DNA of 64,000 nucleotides, from the NCBI GenBank assembly GCA_965217865.1, contig CBDCJO010000002.1, positions 4,960,001 to 5,024,000 of the forward strand, read 5' to 3'. The position numbers and the translations under genes are program-made. Under the pieces are notes generated by a model. That model made no database searches. It had not been told where the DNA came from and saw only the letters and a program-made list of their open reading frames with translations. Below, in pieces: positions 468-50,342 of the stretch (the stretch's first letter is position 1; each line of letters starts with the position of its first letter). Source of the DNA: Candidatus Latescibacterota bacterium (lineage in GTDB: Bacteria > Latescibacterota > UBA2968 > SICM01).

Positions 468-603
468 AGCTAACCAGCGCATGCAGCCGACCCGAAACGC
501 TGTGTCGTGGATTCAGTGTTTGGGTGTTCCGCAGAAGTTTTAGTTTGTAAATTAGAGTCAGCCTCTCCGCAATTTCGGGCGGCTGATCCGCAGTCCGTTA
601 TAC
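468..603 (+). other. attC site
   Basis: R'' AGCTAAC; arms CAGCCGACCCGAAA / TTTCGGGCGGCTG with extrahelical base; R' GTTATAC; directly after a stop codon. Confidence 0.85.
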
Positions 604-15519: not shown

Positions 15520-16081
15520 TTGGGCACTGCCATTCCAGTTTTCTCCATCTCGATGCCCGAGTACTCCATCGATTCACGACCCGATTACTCGGCCGTCGGG
15601 GCGCGACTAGACCGTTTCATCGAGGAGCACCTACCGGGACGCCGGATGGCGCTGCGTGGCATTTACCTCGGCGATCATCCGGACCGACCGCGCAGACCTC
15701 GTAGCCACGATCCGCGAATTAGGCACGGATCGGTACGACGCGAACCGCGAGAGCGTGCACCACGCCTTCTACGAGCAGCTTGGGGTCGAGGTGCACGCGG
15801 TGGCGTGCGAAGTGACCGATAAACTGCGTGGCTTGGGCGACGAAGATTACGTTGCGGCTCCGTCGTTCTCGGGAGAGTTCATCGCGGATTTCTATGAGAG
15901 TGCCCGCGCCGAGAGGGGCTACCCGCTTCGGCTGGACATCCTGATCGCCTACGATCTCGACCAGCTCAATCCGGTGCCGGAGGACGCATCGCAGAGTTTT
16001 GCGTTCAAGAACCCCGACCGAAAACCGGAGGCACTTCTGGCCGTTGTCAACGTTCTGGGCGCTGACGAGGTTTTCCCCTAT
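15520..16081 (+). pseudogene. Frameshifted paralog of 13997-14569; stop codon hit by IS
   Basis: PEY..PDY / LGTDRYD / LRLDILIAY / FKNPDRK span two frames with a shift near 15690. Confidence 0.7.
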
Positions 16082-17607
16082 CAGCCTGTTGAAAAAGTGC
16101 GTTTATGCCAAGATGACTGTTGTCTTTCCTTGTGGTTTGGTCCTATGATATATCAGGTTCAAACTGAGAAGGGAGGACGAGCAAATGGCAATGGGAAAAC
16201 GAGGACGACAGAGACAGGAAAACCTGTTCATCGCATCGAACACTTTGGTGAAATCTCCGGGTCATCCGTTCTACGAGAAGCTGAATCAGGTATTGGGGGC
16301 GAACGGCTTCGACGAGTTCGTCGAGGGGCTTTGCCAGCGGTATTACGCTCCTCATATGGGTCGCAAGGGCATTCCGCCCGGGGTTTATTTTCGGATGCTT
16401 TTGATTGGGTATTTCGAGGGACTTGATTCGGAACGTGGGATCGAATGGCGTGTATCTGACTCGCTGACGTTGCGCCGGTTTTTGGGGTATGCCCTTGACG
16501 AACAGACCCCGGATCATTCCAGCCTGTCTCGCATCCGGCATCGGCTTCCCTTGGAAGTTCACGAAGCGGTTTTCAAGTGGATCCTGAGGGTCTTGTGCAA
16601 AGCGGGTCTGGTGAAGGGGAAGACGTTGGGCGTGGATGCTACGACACTGGAGGCCAACGCCGCGATGCGCAGCATTGTACGCCGTGACACGGGTGAAGGC
16701 TACCAGGCATTCCTTGAGAATCTGGCCAAGGCCTCGGGCATTGAAACGCCTACCCGCGAGGACTTGTCCAAGATCGATAAGAAGCGACCGAAGAAGGGAT
16801 CGAACCAGGACTGGGAGCACCCGCACGACCCGGATGCCAAGATCGCTAAGATGAAGGACGGTCGCACGCACATGGCGCACAAGGTGGAGCACGCGGTGGA
16901 TCTGGACACCAATGCCATTGTGGCAGTGGCGTTGTCGGGAGCAGATGAAGGAGATACCGGGTCGTTGCCCTGGACGCTGCTCGAGGCGCCGCTCAATCTC
17001 AAGCAGGTCGCGAAGGACGAAAAAGCTGCCAAACGTTTGCACAGACAGCGTATACGGGAGGTGGTTGCGGACAAAGGATATCATAGCAACGATGTATTGA
17101 CCAGTCTGAAGCAAGGCGGCATCCGGAGTTACATTTCAGAACCGGATCGGGGACGCCGCAAGTGGAACGGCCGACGAGATGAGCAGGCCGCGGTATATGC
17201 GAATCGACGCCGGATCAAGGGAGATCGCGGCAAGGCCTTGCGCCGAAGTCGTGCAGAACGGGTGGAAAGAACCATCGCTCACACATATGATACCGGTGGC
17301 ATGCGCAGGTTGCACTTGAGAGACCGCGGCAATATCCTCAAGCGTTTGCTGATCCACATCGGGGGCTGTAACCTGGCTCTGCTCATGCGCAAAGTGATGG
17401 GCGTAGGTACTCCGAAGGCCCTCCAGGACCTGGCCAAGGCCTTGCAGCGTCTACTGCTCGTCCTACAATCACGTTTGCTGCCCTCGGTCACCTTTTTAAC
17501 CTCTTATCAGCGTCTCCTGCTCAATCTCCTTACCTTGATTTATCTGACCCGCACTCCAGGCGTCTTTTCCGTTTATGTGCGTTGAAAGGTAGTTCTTCAA
17601 CGGGCTG
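16082..17607 (+). mobile_element. IS5/IS1182-like element
   Basis: IRs CAGCCTGTTGAAAAA / TTCTTCAACGGGCTG; flanks CTAT / CTAG. Confidence 0.9.
16185..17585 (+). CDS. DDE transposase (IS5/IS1182-like)
   Basis: PDHSSLSR, VDAT, ADKGY, RVE motifs. Confidence 0.9.
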   Translation: MAMGKRGRQRQENLFIASNTLVKSPGHPFYEKLNQVLGANGFDEFVEGLCQRYYAPHMGRKGIPPGVYFRMLLIGYFEGLDSERGIEWRVSDSLTLRRFLGYALDEQTPDHSSLSRIRHRLPLEVHEAVFKWILRVLCKAGLVKGKTLGVDATTLEANAAMRSIVRRDTGEGYQAFLENLAKASGIETPTREDLSKIDKKRPKKGSNQDWEHPHDPDAKIAKMKDGRTHMAHKVEHAVDLDTNAIVAVALSGADEGDTGSLPWTLLEAPLNLKQVAKDEKAAKRLHRQRIREVVADKGYHSNDVLTSLKQGGIRSYISEPDRGRRKWNGRRDEQAAVYANRRRIKGDRGKALRRSRAERVERTIAHTYDTGGMRRLHLRDRGNILKRLLIHIGGCNLALLMRKVMGVGTPKALQDLAKALQRLLLVLQSRLLPSVTFLTSYQRLLLNLLTLIYLTRTPGVFSVYVR

Positions 17608-17666: not shown

Positions 17667-17750
17667 GTATAACAGGTCCACTGGCGGCTCCGGCCCCTGG
17701 AGGGGCCTCCGCGCAATTCGGCTGACGCCGAGTTCGCCAGTGGCCGAGAC
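17667..17750 (+). other. attC site interrupted by IS110 (R' GTTATGC at 19666-19672)
   Basis: GTATAAC..CCACTGGCG...CGCCAGTGG; TCGTATAAC is complementary to upstream core GTTATACGA at 15448. Confidence 0.85.
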
Positions 17751-19665
17751 TACATGCGGAAAGTCAAGAGCAAAGTTGACGATTTCGAGGTTGGATGAGA
17801 TTTTTTATGCCGGTTTTCTCAGCGTCAAGGGGTGTAAAGTGGACATTCTTACTATGTTCGGAGCGCAGTTCGCCCTTATGGTGCAGGACCGGTCTTTGAA
17901 GAGGGGCGAAGCTCCCGTGTGGGGGGTGGTGTCTTCCGATACCAACTTACATCCGCGGCCGGCACTCTTGTTTGTGTGAGTAGGTGTGCCGGTCTTCGCG
18001 CATTTTCTAATCCGATCCAGGAAGACGGGGAGGCCTGCGGATCTGTTAGCCGAAGCGACTCCTATCGGAGCCCTCCTCTCAAGCCAGTTCTGCAGGCCGC
18101 CCCTGGCCGCCTTGGAAGGCGGCAGCTTGTGTAACCGGTCCGGCAGGAGACTGCACCGGATGTGAATCGAGCAGCGATGTCAAAGAGCGAGTGTGACCGC
18201 GGCAGCGGTCAGGCGGCGGCGCGAGCGCGCCGTCGGGGATGCTGCTTTTTCTTGTAGCGCTTCATGTAGCGCCTCTCGAGCGTTTTGAGGGATGCCGCGG
18301 GGTGGTCTCTCTCCTCGTAGAGACGATTTTCTCTGAGCAGGGCTACGATGAGCCGTAGGAGCTGGGACGAGGCGGCCACGATATTCTTGCGGTAGCACTT
18401 CTTCCTGAGCTCGCGTTCGAGGAAGCGGCGGCGGACCTGGGGCACGACCCGGGCGGTCTGTTCGGTCATCTGGGTAGATGATTCGCCGCAGCCGGGGATT
18501 GCCGATCTTGCTCATCCGCCTTTTGCCTTTGTACTTTCCGGAGTCGGCGATGCGCACGTTCGTGCCGGCGAGCTTCTCGATCTGTTTGAAGTGGGTGAAG
18601 CGGGTGGCCCCTCGCGTCTCCGCGGTAAATTGGGCAGCCAGGTTTTTGTTGATGTTGGGGATCGAGTCGACGATTTGGAAAGTCGGATCCTGCTGAGTGC
18701 GGGCGATCATCGCCTGCTCCACAGCTTTGAGTTGCGTCTCGGTCCGCCGGAGCGCCTCGATCCAGCCATTCAGGATGATGCGGAGGACATCTTCCTGGCC
18801 CTCGACCGGGATCCCGATGGAGGTCCGGGCCTCCTCCTTCAGCTTCTGCAGCGTCGCCACCCCGTAACTGCCTCTTGAGATCCGATGGATCTGGCGGCCC
18901 TCCTCTTCGATGTCAATTTCCTCGAAGTGGCGGGGCAAGAAATATCGCTCCAACAGGTAGCGGGAGGTCTTCGTACGAATGTTGACCGCGTGGAGGAACT
19001 CCGGGAAGACGCGTTCCATCAGAGACCGGGTGCGGAGCAGGGACTTTGTGAGGTCCTTCCGGAGCTTGTCGTAGGCGATTGAGAGCTGGTGCGCGGCCTC
19101 CATGTGAGGCTCGAACGTCCTGAAGAGATCATAGCTTCCCTTCTGTGCGCTGTCGGCCACCAGAAAGGCATCCCTGGGATCCGACTTGGAGAAATCGCGG
19201 TGCATCATCGGTCTTGCGTGATACGTCGTGAGGGGGCTCACCAGCAGCACGCGATACCCCTTCCCCTGGAGGTAGTGGGCCAGGGTAACCCACAGATTGC
19301 AGGACGTCTCGATGGCCACCACCATCCGATCCGGCCCGCAATCTTTGATGCGTCGCTCCAGATGCTGCCAGAGGGTATGGTCATATCCCGCTCGCGTCAC
19401 GGGGAATGAGAAGGCCCCGCCTTGCTGAAGTCCGGAGGGATCGAGCACCGACCCGCTGTGTTTTTCCTTGCCCGGATCGATCCCGAGGACGAAATTCTGG
19501 GAGATGGCCTGTCGTTTAAGGTGGAAGATTTTCGACTTCATCGTATACCTCCAGCGTTGAGGGTTGAGTTTGCTTGCGCTTGCCGAATCTTAAGACACCT
19601 TGCCTTGCAAGGGAAGATTCAGCCCCTCAACGCTGTTTTTTCCTCCTTTACTCAATATAGAAATC
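17751..19665 (-). mobile_element. IS110-family element, copy 1
   Basis: Appears identical to 43228-45141 except one extra G near 18473; ends defined by where the two copies diverge. Confidence 0.92.
18209..19541 (-). pseudogene. IS110 transposase/recombinase, frameshifted near C-terminus
   Basis: GIDPGK, IETS, KSDPRDA, DSGK; CTGGGTAG versus CTGGTAG in copy 2. Confidence 0.85.
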
Positions 19666-19769
19666 GTTATGCACAATGCCGTTTTGGGGGCTTGGATAAT
19701 CGCACAAGGGGTGCAATTGTAGGACTTACTAACTAGGTACCACAGGTTAACTTTTGCGGAGGTAGCGTC

Positions 19770-24865: not shown

Positions 24866-25065
24866 ACGAATCACGAATCACGAATCACGAATCACGAATC
24901 ACGAATCACGAATCACGAATCACGAATCACGAATCACGAATCACGAATCACGAATCACGAATCACGAATCACGAATCACGAATCACGAATCACGAATCAC
25001 GAATCACGAATCACGAATCACGAATCACGAATCACGAATCACGAATCACGAATCACGAATCACGA
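24866..25065 (+). repeat. Perfect heptamer microsatellite (ACGAATC)28
   Basis: Direct reading; ends about 20 bp before the TamB-like ATG. Confidence 0.97.
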
Positions 25066-25086
25066 CTTTGAGGCTTTGATATCTCA

Positions 25087-39302: not shown

Positions 39303-39479
39303 TTATCGGTGCATACCTTGCGGCATTCCTTCGCTACTCATTTGCTTGAACGGGGAACGGATTTGCGTTATATTCAAGAATTATTAGGACATAAGAGTTC
39401 TAAGACCACCGAAATCTACACCAGGGTCACAACCCGAGATATCGGTAAGATTCAGAGTCCTCTGGATAGTTTAATGTAA
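39303..39479 (+). pseudogene. Tyrosine recombinase C-terminal remnant (probable integron integrase)
   Basis: [40 protein letters not shown]...IQSPLD. Confidence 0.9.
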
Positions 39480-40534: not shown

Positions 40535-42068
40535 TGTATCTTTTGTCTGAGATCGCCCGAAAAAACGGGGGCAAGGTCGAAGCAAGATCCTGGTTGCCTG
40601 TAGGGTTGAGAAGGGATACATATTTTGGGATATCCCTGACCTCACAGGAGGAGTAAAGATGGAGCAACTGTCCTCAAACAGTGACCCGGTCAAGAAGCGC
40701 AGGAGCTTGTCCCCGGAACAGAAGTATGAGATTTTCCTTGAAGCCAGCCGGGGAGATGTTCCCATTGCACAGGTGCTGCGGAAATGGGGCATTCATTCCT
40801 CGGATCTAAAGCGTATTCGTGAGTCGGTCAAGTCCGGGGCCCTCAAGGAGTTCAAGGGTCGCCGGAGCCGCAAGCCGATGGTATCGGCTGAGGAGGTGGA
40901 GCAGCTGCGCAAAGAGCGGGCACGCCTGGAGCAAACGATCATTGAGCAATCTGTGGAACTTTCCCTGCTAAAAAAAAGTGTGAATGGGATCTGACAGGCC
41001 CGATCAAGGGCCACCGGGTGCAAGCTGAGGTCAAACGCGAGATCCTCTTAATGGTCCATCGGGCCAAGGAGAAAGGGGTGAAACTCACCCGTTCTTGCGA
41101 GATCCTACAGCTTCCCCTCCAGCGGTATTGTGCCTGGAGCCGGCGAGATCGAGAAGAGAAGCTGGATGGGGTGTCGGACCCGCTTTTGGATGGGAAGCCC
41201 GGGCCCGCCCCTGATGAGGCCCTACACGGATTGCTGAGGGAGGAGAAAGAGCAAATCTCGGCCCTCTTAAGGGATGAGACCTATGCCGATCTGCCTCCCC
41301 ATCAGCTGGCGGTGGTAGCCTCAGAGAAGGGGGTAGTGCAGGCCTCGGCCTCCACACGCAGGAAACAGGTGAGGACGCCGGTCAAGCAGAGCAAGCCCCA
41401 GGTCAAACCTGAAGGTCCTAATCAGGTCTGGAGCTGGGACCTGACCTACATCCCATTTTTCGGTTTGTTCCTGTATTTTACCGCCATTCTCGACGTGTAT
41501 TCCAGGAAGATCGTAGGATGGAAGCTCTCCTTCAACGCGACCGTGGAGCAGGTCAAACAGGCTTGGGATCAAGCCCTTGCCAACGAAGGACTGCTGGACC
41601 TGGACACTGGGCCCATAAGCTTGACAGCCCTCTCAGATCACGGATCTCAGATGAAGGCCAAATCGATGGCCCAATTCTTCAAGGACCTGGGCATCTCGCA
41701 GCTGTTTGCCCGATATCAAACACCCACGGACAACGCCTGGATCGAAGCCTTTTTCCGGACATTCAAATACGACTGGCTGCGCTTCCAGGACATCTTCACA
41801 TTCCATCAACTGGAAGGCCTGATTGATTCCTTCATTCACAGCTACAACGCCGAACGCTATCACGGGGCAATACAGTATGTCACGCCTCTTCAGAGGCATA
41901 AAGGCCAGCATCAAAAGATTCTTCACCACCGACAAGGTCGAAAGGAGGAGGCTCGGCAGCGCCGCATAGAAATCAATCGGCAAAGAACATCCCAGACCAT
42001 CCACAAGGCTGCCTGAATCTTGCTTGGACCTTTATCTACTTTTCTCTTGTTATCTCAGAATAGATACA
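40535..42068 (+). mobile_element. IS3-family element (orfA 40659-40994, orfB to 42016)
   Basis: TG..CA ends with IRs; A8G slippery site at 40970; WSWD, SDHGSQ, DNAWIE. Confidence 0.9.
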
Positions 42069-42159
42069 GTTGGCAGGTCGGGAGTGCCGGGAACGTTACA
42101 CGCCAGCGGCACAAGCTCTTGAAAGAACCACCACGCAGACATTCAGGGATATAAAATCT

Positions 42160-42746: not shown

Positions 42747-42797
42747 CTGGTAATGACTATCAGCCTTTGGAGCCCCACACGTCATTTTTCGCGCTAG

Positions 42798-42983
42798 CAG
42801 CCTGTTGAAAAAGTGCGTTTATGCCAAGATGACTGTTGTCTTTCCTTGTGGTTTGGTCCTATGATATATCAGGTTCAAACTGAGAAGGGAGGACGAGCAA
42901 ATGGCAATGGGAAAACGAGGACGACAGAGACAGGAAAACCTGTTCATCGCATCGAACACTTTGGTGAAATTTCCGGGTCATCC
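42798..42983 (+). mobile_element. Truncated left end of the IS5/IS1182-like element
   Basis: Near-identical to 16082-16267; preceded by CTAG. Confidence 0.9.
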
Positions 42984-43152
42984 CTTTGCGAAGCCTTAAG
43001 GGCCAGAAGAAGATCTTTATCTTGAGATCACCATCCGAGGTCAGAACATTCTTAGGCACAATGAAACACAAGGCAGTCAAACAACTATGAAGAATCATAA
43101 AGGGAAATTCTGGCCCTTTTGCTCTTTTGACTTTTCCAAAATTGGAACAGGC

Positions 43153-43227
43153 TCTTAACACGCCGCTTGCGGCTCGTGCCTGCGGCCCTCGACCAAACCC
43201 ACTTCGTGGGTTCGCAAGCGGCTAAAC
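43153..43227 (+). other. attC site interrupted by IS110 (R' GTTAAAT at 45142-45148)
   Basis: TCTTAAC..CCGCTTGCG...CGCAAGCGG. Confidence 0.85.
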
Positions 43228-43685
43228 TACATGCGGAAAGTCAAGAGCAAAGTTGACGATTTCGAGGTTGGATGAGATTTTTTATGCCGGTTTTCTCAGC
43301 GTCAAGGGGTGTAAAGTGGACATTCTTACTATGTTCGGAGCGCAGTTCGCCCTTATGGTGCAGGACCGGTCTTTGAAGAGGGGCGAAGCTCCCGTGTGGG
43401 GGGTGGTGTCTTCCGATACCAACTTACATCCGCGGCCGGCACTCTTGTTTGTGTGAGTAGGTGTGCCGGTCTTCGCGCATTTTCTAATCCGATCCAGGAA
43501 GACGGGGAGGCCTGCGGATCTGTTAGCCGAAGCGACTCCTATCGGAGCCCTCCTCTCAAGCCAGTTCTGCAGGCCGCCCCTGGCCGCCTTGGAAGGCGGC
43601 AGCTTGTGTAACCGGTCCGGCAGGAGACTGCACCGGATGTGAATCGAGCAGCGATGTCAAAGAGCGAGTGTGACCGCGGCAGCGG
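43228..43685 (-). ncRNA. Candidate bridge/seek RNA region (also 17751-18208)
   Basis: 458 bp non-coding end downstream of tnp with hairpins (CCGGCAC..GTGCCGG, GCCGCCTT..AAGGCGGC, TTCGCCC..GGGCGAA); assigned by analogy to IS1111. Confidence 0.55.
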
Positions 43686-45017
43686 TCAGGCGGCGGCGCG
43701 AGCGCGCCGTCGGGGATGCTGCTTTTTCTTGTAGCGCTTCATGTAGCGCCTCTCGAGCGTTTTGAGGGATGCCGCGGGGTGGTCTCTCTCCTCGTAGAGA
43801 CGATTTTCTCTGAGCAGGGCTACGATGAGCCGTAGGAGCTGGGACGAGGCGGCCACGATATTCTTGCGGTAGCACTTCTTCCTGAGCTCGCGTTCGAGGA
43901 AGCGGCGGCGGACCTGGGGCACGACCCGGGCGGTCTGTTCGGTCATCTGGTAGATGATTCGCCGCAGCCGGGGATTGCCGATCTTGCTCATCCGCCTTTT
44001 GCCTTTGTACTTTCCGGAGTCGGCGATGCGCACGTTCGTGCCGGCGAGCTTCTCGATCTGTTTGAAGTGGGTGAAGCGGGTGGCCCCTCGCGTCTCCGCG
44101 GTAAATTGGGCAGCCAGGTTTTTGTTGATGTTGGGGATCGAGTCGACGATTTGGAAAGTCGGATCCTGCTGAGTGCGGGCGATCATCGCCTGCTCCACAG
44201 CTTTGAGTTGCGTCTCGGTCCGCCGGAGCGCCTCGATCCAGCCATTCAGGATGATGCGGAGGACATCTTCCTGGCCCTCGACCGGGATCCCGATGGAGGT
44301 CCGGGCCTCCTCCTTCAGCTTCTGCAGCGTCGCCACCCCGTAACTGCCTCTTGAGATCCGATGGATCTGGCGGCCCTCCTCTTCGATGTCAATTTCCTCG
44401 AAGTGGCGGGGCAAGAAATATCGCTCCAACAGGTAGCGGGAGGTCTTCGTACGAATGTTGACCGCGTGGAGGAACTCCGGGAAGACGCGTTCCATCAGAG
44501 ACCGGGTGCGGAGCAGGGACTTTGTGAGGTCCTTCCGGAGCTTGTCGTAGGCGATTGAGAGCTGGTGCGCGGCCTCCATGTGAGGCTCGAACGTCCTGAA
44601 GAGATCATAGCTTCCCTTCTGTGCGCTGTCGGCCACCAGAAAGGCATCCCTGGGATCCGACTTGGAGAAATCGCGGTGCATCATCGGTCTTGCGTGATAC
44701 GTCGTGAGGGGGCTCACCAGCAGCACGCGATACCCCTTCCCCTGGAGGTAGTGGGCCAGGGTAACCCACAGATTGCAGGACGTCTCGATGGCCACCACCA
44801 TCCGATCCGGCCCGCAATCTTTGATGCGTCGCTCCAGATGCTGCCAGAGGGTATGGTCATATCCCGCTCGCGTCACGGGGAATGAGAAGGCCCCGCCTTG
44901 CTGAAGTCCGGAGGGATCGAGCACCGACCCGCTGTGTTTTTCCTTGCCCGGATCGATCCCGAGGACGAAATTCTGGGAGATGGCCTGTCGTTTAAGGTGG
45001 AAGATTTTCGACTTCAT
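43686..45017 (-). CDS. IS110 family transposase/recombinase
   Basis: DEDD domain (GID, IET, KSDPRDA) and C-terminal SG motif; GGAGG RBS. Confidence 0.93.
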   Translation of the reverse strand: MKSKIFHLKRQAISQNFVLGIDPGKEKHSGSVLDPSGLQQGGAFSFPVTRAGYDHTLWQHLERRIKDCGPDRMVVAIETSCNLWVTLAHYLQGKGYRVLLVSPLTTYHARPMMHRDFSKSDPRDAFLVADSAQKGSYDLFRTFEPHMEAAHQLSIAYDKLRKDLTKSLLRTRSLMERVFPEFLHAVNIRTKTSRYLLERYFLPRHFEEIDIEEEGRQIHRISRGSYGVATLQKLKEEARTSIGIPVEGQEDVLRIILNGWIEALRRTETQLKAVEQAMIARTQQDPTFQIVDSIPNINKNLAAQFTAETRGATRFTHFKQIEKLAGTNVRIADSGKYKGKRRMSKIGNPRLRRIIYQMTEQTARVVPQVRRRFLERELRKKCYRKNIVAASSQLLRLIVALLRENRLYEERDHPAASLKTLERRYMKRYKKKQHPRRRARAAA

Positions 45018-45229
45018 CGTATACCTCCAGCGTTGAGGGTTGAGTTTGCTTGCGCTTGCCGAATCTTAAGACACCTTGCCTTGCAAGGGAAGATTCAGCC
45101 CCTCAACGCTGTTTTTTCCTCCTTTACTCAATATAGAAATCGTTAAATGCAAGCAGCGCAAAGACAAACCCCATAAACCATACACTCTTGCTCTTGACTG
45201 AGCAATCCTGCAAATCGTCGGAGGCAAGT

Positions 45230-46479: not shown

Positions 46480-46581
46480 AAAGGGATTGCTTAACCGCCA
46501 AATGCACCGTATTTGGGGGACGCGCAGCAATTTTAGCTCTGTACGTTTGGTCACGTTTCTTGTTGCTTCAAGCTTGGGGGC

Positions 46582-47900
46582 TGTATCTATTCTGAGATAA
46601 CAAGAGAAAAGCAGATAAAGGTCCAAGCAAGATTCAGGCAGCCTTGTGGATGGTCTGGGATGTTCTTTGCCGATTGATTTCTATGCGGCGCTGCCGAGCC
46701 TCCTCCTTTCGACCTTGTCGGTGGTGAAGAATCTTTTGATGCTGGCCTTTATGCCTCTGAAGAGGCGTGACATACTGTATTGCCCCGTGATAGCGTTCGG
46801 CGTTGTAGCTGTGAATGAAGGAATCAATCAGGCCTTCCAGTTGATGGAATGTGAAGATGTCCTGGAAGCGCAGCCAGTCGTATTTGAATGTCCGGAAAAA
46901 GGCTTCGATCCAGGCGTTGTCCGTGGGTGTTTGATATCGGGCAAACAGCTGCGAGATGCCCAGGTCCTTGAAGAATTGGGCCATCGATTTGGCCTTCATC
47001 TGAGATCCGTGATCTGAGAGGGCTGTCAAGCTTATGGGCCCAGTGTCCAGGTCCAGCAGTCCTTCGTTGGCAAGGGCTTGATCCCAGGCCTGTTTGACCT
47101 GCTCCACGGTCGCGTTGAAGGAGAGCTTCCATCCTACGATCTTCCTGGAATACACGTCGAGAATGGCGGTAAAATACAGGAACAAACCGAAAAATGGGAT
47201 GTAGGTCAGGTCCCAGCTCCAGACCTGATTAGGACCTTCAGGTTTGACCTGGGGCTTGCTCTGCTTGACCGGCGTCCTCACCTGTTTCCTGCGTGTGGAG
47301 GCCGAGGCCTGCACTACCCCCTTCTCTGAGGCTACCACCGCCAGCTGATGGGGAGGCAGATCGGCATAGGTCTCATCCGTGTGGGGCCTCATCAGGGGCG
47401 GGCCCGGGCTTCCCATCCAAAAGCGGGTCCGACACCCCATCCAGCTTCTCTTCTCGATCTCGCCGGCTCCAGGCACAATACCGCTGGAGGGGAAGCTGTA
47501 GGATCTCGCAAGAACGGGTGAGTTTCACCCCTTTCTCCTTGGCCCGATGGACCATTAAGAGGATCTCGCGTTTGACCTCAGCTTGCACCCGGTGGCCCTT
47601 GATCGGGCCTGTCAGATCCCATTCACACTTTTTTTTAGCAGGGAAAGTTCCACAGATTGCTCAATGATCGTTTGCTCCAGGCGTGCCCGCTCTTTGCGCA
47701 GCTGCTCCACCTCCTCAGCCGATACCATCGGCTTGCGGCTCCGGCGACCCTTGAACTCCTTGAGGGCCGTTGCTCCATCTTTACTCCTCCTGTGAGGTCA
47801 GGGATATCCCAAAATATGTATCCCTTCTCAACCCTACAGGCAACCAGGATCTTGCTTCGACCTTGCCCCCGTTTTTTCGGGCGATCTCAGACAAAAGATA
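46582..47900 (-). mobile_element. IS3-family element, copy 2 with internal deletions
   Basis: Inverted copy of 40535-42068; deletions in orfA and at the start of orfB; follows attC left half GCTTAAC at 46489. Confidence 0.9.
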
Positions 47901-50228: not shown

Positions 50229-50342
50229 ATGTAACAAGACGGTTCCCGGCTCCGCTCCTTCGTCGCTCCGGCCCAACTTGGCCTCACCGCACCGAAGACC
50301 CAACCACCCAATGGCCAAGTTCGGGAACCGCGACCGTTAACT
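50229..50342 (+). other. attC site
   Basis: ATGTAAC..CGGTTCCCG...CGGGAACCG..GTTAACT; GTTAACTGC pairs with GCAGTTAAC at 51217. Confidence 0.85.

Follow-up and report, generated by a model that had tools for sequence, protein, structure and literature searches.

The sequence analysed here, referred to as the window, is a stretch of 64,000 nt from Candidatus Latescibacterota bacterium (GCA_965217865.1, CBDCJO010000002.1:4,960,001-5,024,000). It carries two copies of an insertion sequence of about 1.9 kb on the minus strand, copy A at 17732-19669 and copy B at 43210-45145, which are 99.69% identical over an alignment of 1938 nt that includes some similar flanking sequence. The genome contains seven near-full copies plus fragments. 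All genome copies start with TAACGATTTCTAT and finish with CATGTAG, and their flanks vary. Judging from the identity among the seven near-full copies and from empty paralogous sites, copy B extends over 43227-45141 (minus strand), its outer bases being a shared core G at 45141, the first base of its own, an A, at 45140, and the last G of GTAG at 43227. The initial annotation had put the right end at 43228, one base short of this G.

Copy B contains a gene for an IS110-family DEDD recombinase of 443 aa (43686-45017, minus strand; PF01548, 9.6e-19; PF02371, 5.6e-16). The protein scores 157.9 bits against NF033542 ('IS110 family RNA-guided transposase'; cut-off 140) and shows the motif G326-T-N-V-R-I-A-D-S334-G335. 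In copy A, one additional C causes a +1 frameshift in tnp. The non-coding ends of the element measure about 125 nt on the left and about 460 nt on the right. The 458-bp stretch downstream of tnp (43228-43685) was noted at the outset as identical in both copies, and this is confirmed: it occurs exactly twice in the window (from 17751 and 43228) and six times in the genome, and no difference between copies A and B falls within it in the alignment. The 176-nt RNA core described below has eight exact occurrences in the genome.

Two inverted IS3-family copies with HTH_Tnp_1 and rve ORFs, 97-100% identical (40537-42069 and 46581-47900), flank the region that holds copy B. A 200-nt repeat of 97-98% identity (16071-16270 and 42787-42986) is found near both IS110 copies, at differing distances, and about 30 head-to-tail 7-nt units of ACGAATC, reported as a family of 14-nt spacing, occupy 24866-25075.

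Relatives of the element and conservation of the tail

Of the candidates scored in protein searches, 170 were relatives with E ≤ 1e-20. A locus search with the single protein as query returned no relatives; with an alignment of 40 relatives as query, 34 loci were obtained from genome contigs and 80 of 237 from metagenome contigs. The resulting set comprises 101 parsed loci with a usable gene, which are kin and not independent of each other, and their proteins are mostly 430-465 aa long. For the metagenomic relatives, ends were assigned from a motif, allowing up to two mismatches, and not from empty sites. On plasmids, even the best IS110-family relatives stay below 28% identity to the 443-aa protein.

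When the tail was used as nhmmer query, distant tails were found already with the tail alone. After two nhmmer rounds, a homologous tail was seen behind 95 of 98 related tnp genes with at least 150 nt of downstream sequence, spanning 38-90% protein identity, and the matches mostly extend to the end of the element. Even at 38-56% protein identity the whole tail is kept. The strongest sequence blocks correspond to positions of about 150-262 of the element's own tail and to its extreme end. The stretch of 180 nt that separates the RNA core from the element's terminus (43227-43406, minus strand) varies little in length among relatives (157-201 nt) and contains conserved islands; RNAalifold on MAFFT alignments predicted no common fold for this 3' part of the tail. 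A conserved ORF in the tail was considered and rejected, the longest ORFs (median 73 aa) of 84 relatives lying on either strand, 49 on the minus and 35 on the plus strand.

Sub-terminal inverted repeats are missing from the 57 distinct relatives compared. The longest exact repeat was 6.2 nt, against 5.9 nt in shuffled sequences, and these repeats have no position in common. A GAAATC near the right end, to which the initial annotation had assigned complementarity to the circle junction, is likewise unconserved.

A two-loop fold downstream of tnp

The predicted guide (bridge/seek) RNA core is located at 43407-43582 (minus strand), 104-279 nt past the tnp stop codon, and consists of two stem/internal-loop/hairpin modules. 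Its counterpart in copy A is at 17930-18105 (minus strand). Both score 90.5 bits with the covariance model R1 (see below), and a G+C-rich hairpin is found next to the core of copy B at 43583-43600.

Folded alone, the 458-nt strand reached −156.6 kcal/mol (z = −2.12), with 2 of 100 shuffles being equally good; as evidence, this single-sequence fold is weak. Single-sequence folds of 78 distinct relatives showed two recurring neighbouring modules, each with a large internal loop between its outer stem and its inner hairpin. The 29 base pairs of these modules were written by hand onto A3, a MAFFT alignment of 47 sequences that had not been fitted to structure. In A3, 89.7% of the cells pair, compared with 77.0% upon shuffling (0 of 500 as high), and 24 of the 29 pairs show changes on both sides; controls with slid partners gave 39-48%. 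Unaided, RNAalifold found 14 of the 29 pairs, and runs on MAFFT alignments recovered the fold in part.

The covariance model R1 (166 positions) was built from A3. It gave 93 matches in 369 kb, with E-values that are to be taken as rough; 91 of 97 loci had one match each, all of them 3' of tnp and on the tnp strand. Within the window, R1 matched at the two element copies and nowhere else. In A4, the R1-fitted alignment of 86 distinct rows, 93.1% of the cells pair versus 77.9% upon shuffling and 27 of the 29 pairs change on both sides, values that are biased towards structure by the fitting. With matches in these loci and in both window copies, and with compensatory changes in the stems, a fold conserved among homologs is present. 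The tail region matched no Rfam family, the best hit being sX12 (24.7 bits against a gathering score of 106; E = 0.43), and a scan of the flanks of 11 genome copies returned no Rfam match.

Loop 2 carries the letters of the element ends

Candidate guides were located by comparing every RNA column of A4 with the element ends and flanks, followed by position-by-position tests. On the 3' side of loop 2 (43419-43430, minus strand), the predicted left-donor guide reads AUGUA, one unmatched base, the core G and a U, the last being the same as the first flank base. The corresponding segment of the relatives reads AAGYA, one extra base, G and N. The AAGYA is equal to positions −6 to −2 of the right end in 66/66, 66/66, 66/66, 66/66 and 65/65 cases (0 of 2000 shuffles as high), and it tracks every variant that occurs there: position −3 can be T, C or A, position −5 can be T, and positions −6 and −4 vary in single cases. 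Right-end position −1 agrees with the G in 64 of 65. For N, agreement with the first base of the flank is seen in 47 of 63, where 18.9 are expected (0 of 2000 shuffles).

The 5' side of loop 2 (43478-43490, minus strand) is the predicted right-donor guide, which would pair with left-end positions 5-11 leaving one bulged A. Across the relatives, pairing with positions 5-9 is found in 54/67, 59/67, 67/68, 63/67 and 57/67; one A is then skipped (0/67), after which positions 10 and 11 are paired in 67/67 and 66/68. Covariation can be seen directly for column 189 and left-end position 8, which pair in 63 of 67 with none of 2000 shuffles as high.

Loop 1 and the insertion site

The 3' side of loop 1, GGCUAAC-A-GAU (43518-43528, minus strand), is the predicted left-target guide. 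Its layout resembles that of the left-donor guide: UAAC is followed by one unmatched base, the core G and AU, the latter being the element's first two bases. In the relatives, UAAC agrees in the same sense with junction positions 1-4 (65/69, 67/69, 69/70 and 69/70) and GAU with positions 5-7 (69/70, 70/70 and 64/70), while column 136 and left-end position 4 carry the same letter in 69 of 70 (0 of 2000 shuffles as high). Where lineages have TAAT, TAAA or TACA at the junction, their RNA carries the identical change.

The opposite, 5' side of loop 1 (43555-43568, minus strand) is hypervariable and forms the most variable part. It is the predicted right-target guide, on account of its complementarity to right flanks across relatives. 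An exact complement of at least 7 nt within the first 25 bases of the right flank is present in 12 of 66 relatives versus 2.3% of mismatched pairs, and one of at least 6 nt in 20 of 66 versus 7.3%; same-sense and left-flank comparisons, run as controls, were flat. Between two of the loci (L132 and L135), one loop 1 base and the flank base pairing with it change together. Covariation across relatives revealed no diagonal and hence no fixed register between loop 1 and the right flank. For this element itself, complementarity of loop 1 to its own 11 right flanks is at chance (best 8-nt window, mean 5.0 versus 5.08; P = 0.71). These 11 sites have in common a T at +1 and CCCGAA at +11 to +16, and the CCGAA motif is also frequent at empty hairpin sites elsewhere in the genome. 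A search for left-flank guides gave no signal at flank positions −1 and −2, nor for any loop 1 segment against the left flank.

Several short matches to the target and to the circle junction had led to the initial suggestion of guide loops, with the caveat that they might have arisen by chance. Three of these four coincide with guide segments found family-wide, GCTAAC in 43518-43528, GATGTAAG in 43419-43430 and TAGAAA in 43478-43490; GAAATC drops out. That the three exceed chance is shown by covariation between their positions and the ends of the element among the relatives. The initial bridge/seek RNA reading is supported by computation, the fold being conserved and the loops covarying with the donor ends and matching the left half of the target.

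A predicted promoter at the circle junction

The right end (43227-43244, minus strand) contains a −35-like TTGACT at 43239-43244, which is probably one half of a junction promoter. A −10-like TATATT is present in the left end (45130-45135, minus strand), 17 nt from TTGACT in a circle closed at the core G. Joining the ends of 54 distinct relatives in the same manner resulted in TTGAC[A/T] and TAnnnT with a spacer of 17 nt in 44 cases and of 18 nt in one, and nine had no match. Directly upstream of the RNA core, no sigma-70-like promoter was found, and a promoter-like site on the minus strand at 43305-43277 is downstream of it. The RNA would derive from read-through, either from tnp or from the junction promoter.

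Assemblies from four RNA-library runs contained seven short contigs of the element with a depth of 2.5-6. Three of these map to the tail (43286-43526, 43512-43722 and 43349-43547) and the other four to tnp. They come without strand or ends, and carry-over of DNA is possible. With tnp and tail represented alike, they are no evidence of a discrete RNA.

In one genome copy (L006, G000:C2:3759591-3761495), 12 nt of the left end are absent (GATTTCTATATT). Because the donor-guide site and the −10 box are gone with these 12 nt, this copy is probably immobile.

The core base and the attC-like target

Copy B is preceded on the left by TAAC (45142-45145, minus strand), the putatively target-derived left half of the insertion site, which has its same-sense match in loop 1. 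The right half (43153-43226, minus strand) is an imperfect hairpin ending in GTGTTAAGA. An empty paralogous copy of the right-half site exists elsewhere in the genome, 93% identical over 71 nt. Of seven element-free homologs of right flanks in the genome, four have TAACG immediately before the homology; among the others, one reads TACCG and one TAACAA. A degenerate copy of the element has TTCC in front of GATTTC. In the relatives, mismatches to the guides amount to 8 of 278 cells at the TAAC positions versus 0 of 329 at the right end.

These observations bear on what belongs to the element. TAAC is best understood as the target's left half, with a single G common to both junctions, because the empty paralogous sites mostly read TAACG before the right flank, because of the TTCC in the degenerate copy together with guide mismatches at TAAC but none at the right end, and because the ends joined at G give the 17-nt promoter spacer in relatives. 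The element proper is then best read as running from ATTTC... to ...CATGTA(G). A core of five bases, TAACG, was ruled out, since the right junction is without TAACG. One locus does not conform: for L005 (G000:C2:3464210) there are two empty paralogs (441695 and 704858) in which both flanks are homologous, and these have TCACC versus TAACG at the occupied site. This TCACC is outside what the one-base-core model explains.

The right flanks are imperfect hairpins which begin 4-6 nt past the junction and finish with GTGTTAAG or GTGTTATA, and in the relatives the flank plus TAAC frequently reads GCCTAAC. In integron attC sites, an imperfect palindrome spanning roughly 60-140 bp has the core RYYYAAC at one end and the core GTTRRRY at the other. 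The insertion sites agree with these letters, having RYYYAAC and GTTRRRY ends and an imperfect palindrome between them. The genome contains 55 loci that form a TAAC...GTTA palindrome around an inner dyad. Forty of them carry TAACG on a single strand, and in 37 of these 40 the spacer is longer on the side of TAACG. Such sites are clustered about 1 kb apart at several places. Two uninterrupted TAACG...GTTA palindromic sites of this attC-like type are located in the window (471-600 and 50232-50339, minus strand).

A split gene beside two such sites matches the integron integrase model TIGR02249 with 117.7 and 105.4 bits (cut-off 265). In the window, a 75-aa open frame matches the C-terminus of the same model over 56 residues (39306-39473, plus strand; 78.3 bits) and looks like a gene remnant. 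In two cases, homology between paralogous sites stops at the TAACG core, a pattern expected where a cassette ends. From the hairpin flanks, the clustering of sites, the integrase matches and the homology breaks, we call the target attC-like. Counts of the TAACG...TGTTA pattern in the genome against the reversed genome (108 vs 295 and 66 vs 258) are uninformative. ORFs next to the sites, 20 of them in the sense direction and 17 antisense, indicate no direction for the cassettes.

Discussion

We consider it likely, with a probability of roughly 0.85, that the conserved two-loop element at 43407-43582 (minus strand) is transcribed as a bridge/seek-type guide RNA, which would pair with the joined ends and with the insertion site and thereby direct the DEDD recombinase. 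According to the model derived from this, the element would excise as a circle whose ends are joined at one shared G. This would create the TTGACT-17-TATATT promoter, reading through tnp into the RNA, which would then be excised from the transcript and bound by the recombinase. Loop 2 would hold the circle junction and loop 1 the TAAC-G-T... site at one end of an attC-like hairpin, with strand exchange taking place at the G. The letters beyond the core may serve a handshake after the exchange: the AU past the core in the left-target guide corresponds to the donor's next bases, and the single base past the core in the left-donor guide to the next base of the target.

Could the tail act as DNA only, providing recombinase-binding sites, the −35 box and end sequences, with no RNA taking part in recognition? 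Part of the tail supports such a role, the last 18 nt with their conserved TTGAC and AAGYAG clearly acting as DNA, and the 157-201 nt between core and end hold conserved islands for which no common fold is predicted. In addition, no promoter of its own directly precedes the RNA core, and the RNA-library contigs carry neither strand nor ends. However, 24-27 of the 29 pairs hold through changes on both sides, which indicates a folded single strand and not a protein site on duplex DNA. Moreover, the loop letters copy or complement ends that are 150-1900 nt away and covary with them. Hence, we consider a role as DNA only to be very unlikely for the tail.

An accessory function has a precedent in ISPpu9 (PMC12288879), which belongs to the IS110 group, inserts at hairpins (REP) and has an sRNA gene downstream. 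Its sRNA, Ssr9, is described as dispensable, with end boxes of its own, and the ISPpu9 circles as making no junction promoter. By analogy, the tail might be a hitch-hiking or regulatory sRNA module that is dispensable for transposition, and the genome does contain two solo tail fragments (L009 and L011). But these begin at differing internal points and have neither an adjoining left-end motif nor end boxes, for which reason a hitch-hiking module of the ISPpu9 type does not fit the tail. Likewise, a dispensable module would hardly be expected in 95 of 98 relatives with donor and target letters in its loops, and we regard this explanation as most improbable. One of the solo fragments (L011, 355 nt, G000:C2:about 2467800) adjoins two copies of a 29-nt CRISPR-like repeat.

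Finally, a structured 3' UTR (terminator, stabiliser or control of tnp translation) or an unrelated known RNA family, suggested by the position of the tail immediately past the stop codon and by the G+C-rich hairpin at 43583-43600, is scarcely credible given that Rfam returned no family and the minus strand no terminator-like site, and it would leave the letters that covary with element ends and flanks unexplained.

The guide RNA reading has consequences beyond this locus. RNA-guided IS110/IS1111 recombinases are in development as programmable DNA-insertion tools, and to these the present family adds a distant clade, less than 28% identical to the plasmid-borne relatives, with about 90 natural sets of RNA, ends and target. 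The guide code read from covariation, with its one-base core, bulged guides and handshake letters, translates into concrete testable designs. The family would represent another lineage homing to attC-like sites and, for this genome, the model accounts for seven near-identical copies and their choice of sites.

The element is a new, deep-branching member of the RNA-guided IS110/IS1111 recombinases, the mechanism itself being known. A farther-reaching view, which we put forward tentatively and consider rather doubtful as a joint claim, is that it stands for a deep, undescribed clade of bridge recombinases in several uncultured phyla with a different geometry of DNA reading. Such a clade would be without sub-terminal repeats and without the proline of the G--P----SG motif. 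Its left guides would comprise 5 nt, a flipped-out nucleotide and then a single-base core, with the handshake letters built in, and its natural aim would be the crossover core of attC-like hairpins.

Comparison with known systems

In the placement of its RNA, the element resembles the IS1111 type. According to Siddiquee et al. (2024; PMC11187229), the seekRNAs of IS1111-type elements are encoded 3' of tnp, and within them the complement of the top strand precedes the same-sense segment. The elements concerned are ISEc11, ISPa11 and the attC-targeting ISKpn4, ISPst6 and ISPa25, the latter three aiming at one end of attC. ISPa21 and ISPst6 are described in PMC3001079 as inserting near the 5' end of attC in antisense orientation. 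The element reported here shares with the IS1111 seekRNAs an RNA in a long non-coding region 3' of tnp in which the top-strand complement comes first, the targeting of one end of hairpin sites (attC, REP) and a circle-junction promoter, the last being a prediction in our case. It differs from IS1111 elements in the size of its protein, with 443 aa against the 330-350 aa given for IS1111 transposases in PMC11187229. IS1111 elements also have sub-terminal inverted repeats of 7-17 bp, which this element, like its 57 distinct relatives, does not have. At the place where the present protein reads G326-T-N-V-R-I-A-D-S334-G335, PMC11187229 gives G--P----SG, a motif whose proline is absent here.

The lack of sub-terminal inverted repeats is a trait shared with the IS110 group. 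Unlike in this group, in which the long non-coding region is usually upstream of the gene, the long region is downstream here, although IS110-type exceptions with a downstream non-coding region do exist according to PMC11187229. ISPpu9 (PMC12288879) is similar in belonging to the IS110 group, lacking inverted repeats, inserting next to palindromic repeats at a constant position and having an RNA gene downstream of tnp. In contrast to ISPpu9, the downstream RNA of the present element carries guide letters and a junction promoter is predicted.

With IS621 (Durrant et al. 2024, PMC11208160; Hiraizumi et al. 2024, PMC11208158; PDB 8wt6), the similarity is in the logic of recognition. According to PMC11208160 and PMC11208158, the right guides of IS621 pair with the top strand, both segments reach the CT core, and the core-adjacent letters pair with the other partner after exchange. 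Here, too, there are two internal loops, for target and donor, each with a predicted same-sense segment for the left half and a predicted complement for the right half that both reach the core, and the core-adjacent letters match the other partner in the manner of a handshake. The IS621 RNA is in the left end, whereas it follows tnp here, and the left and right guides are on opposite sides of each loop compared with IS621. Instead of CT, the core as read from the junctions is a single shared G, and both left guides have one unmatched base before the core, in addition to the bulged A in the right-donor guide. Protein similarity to the IS621 recombinase is confined to the C-terminal domain (2.2e-10).
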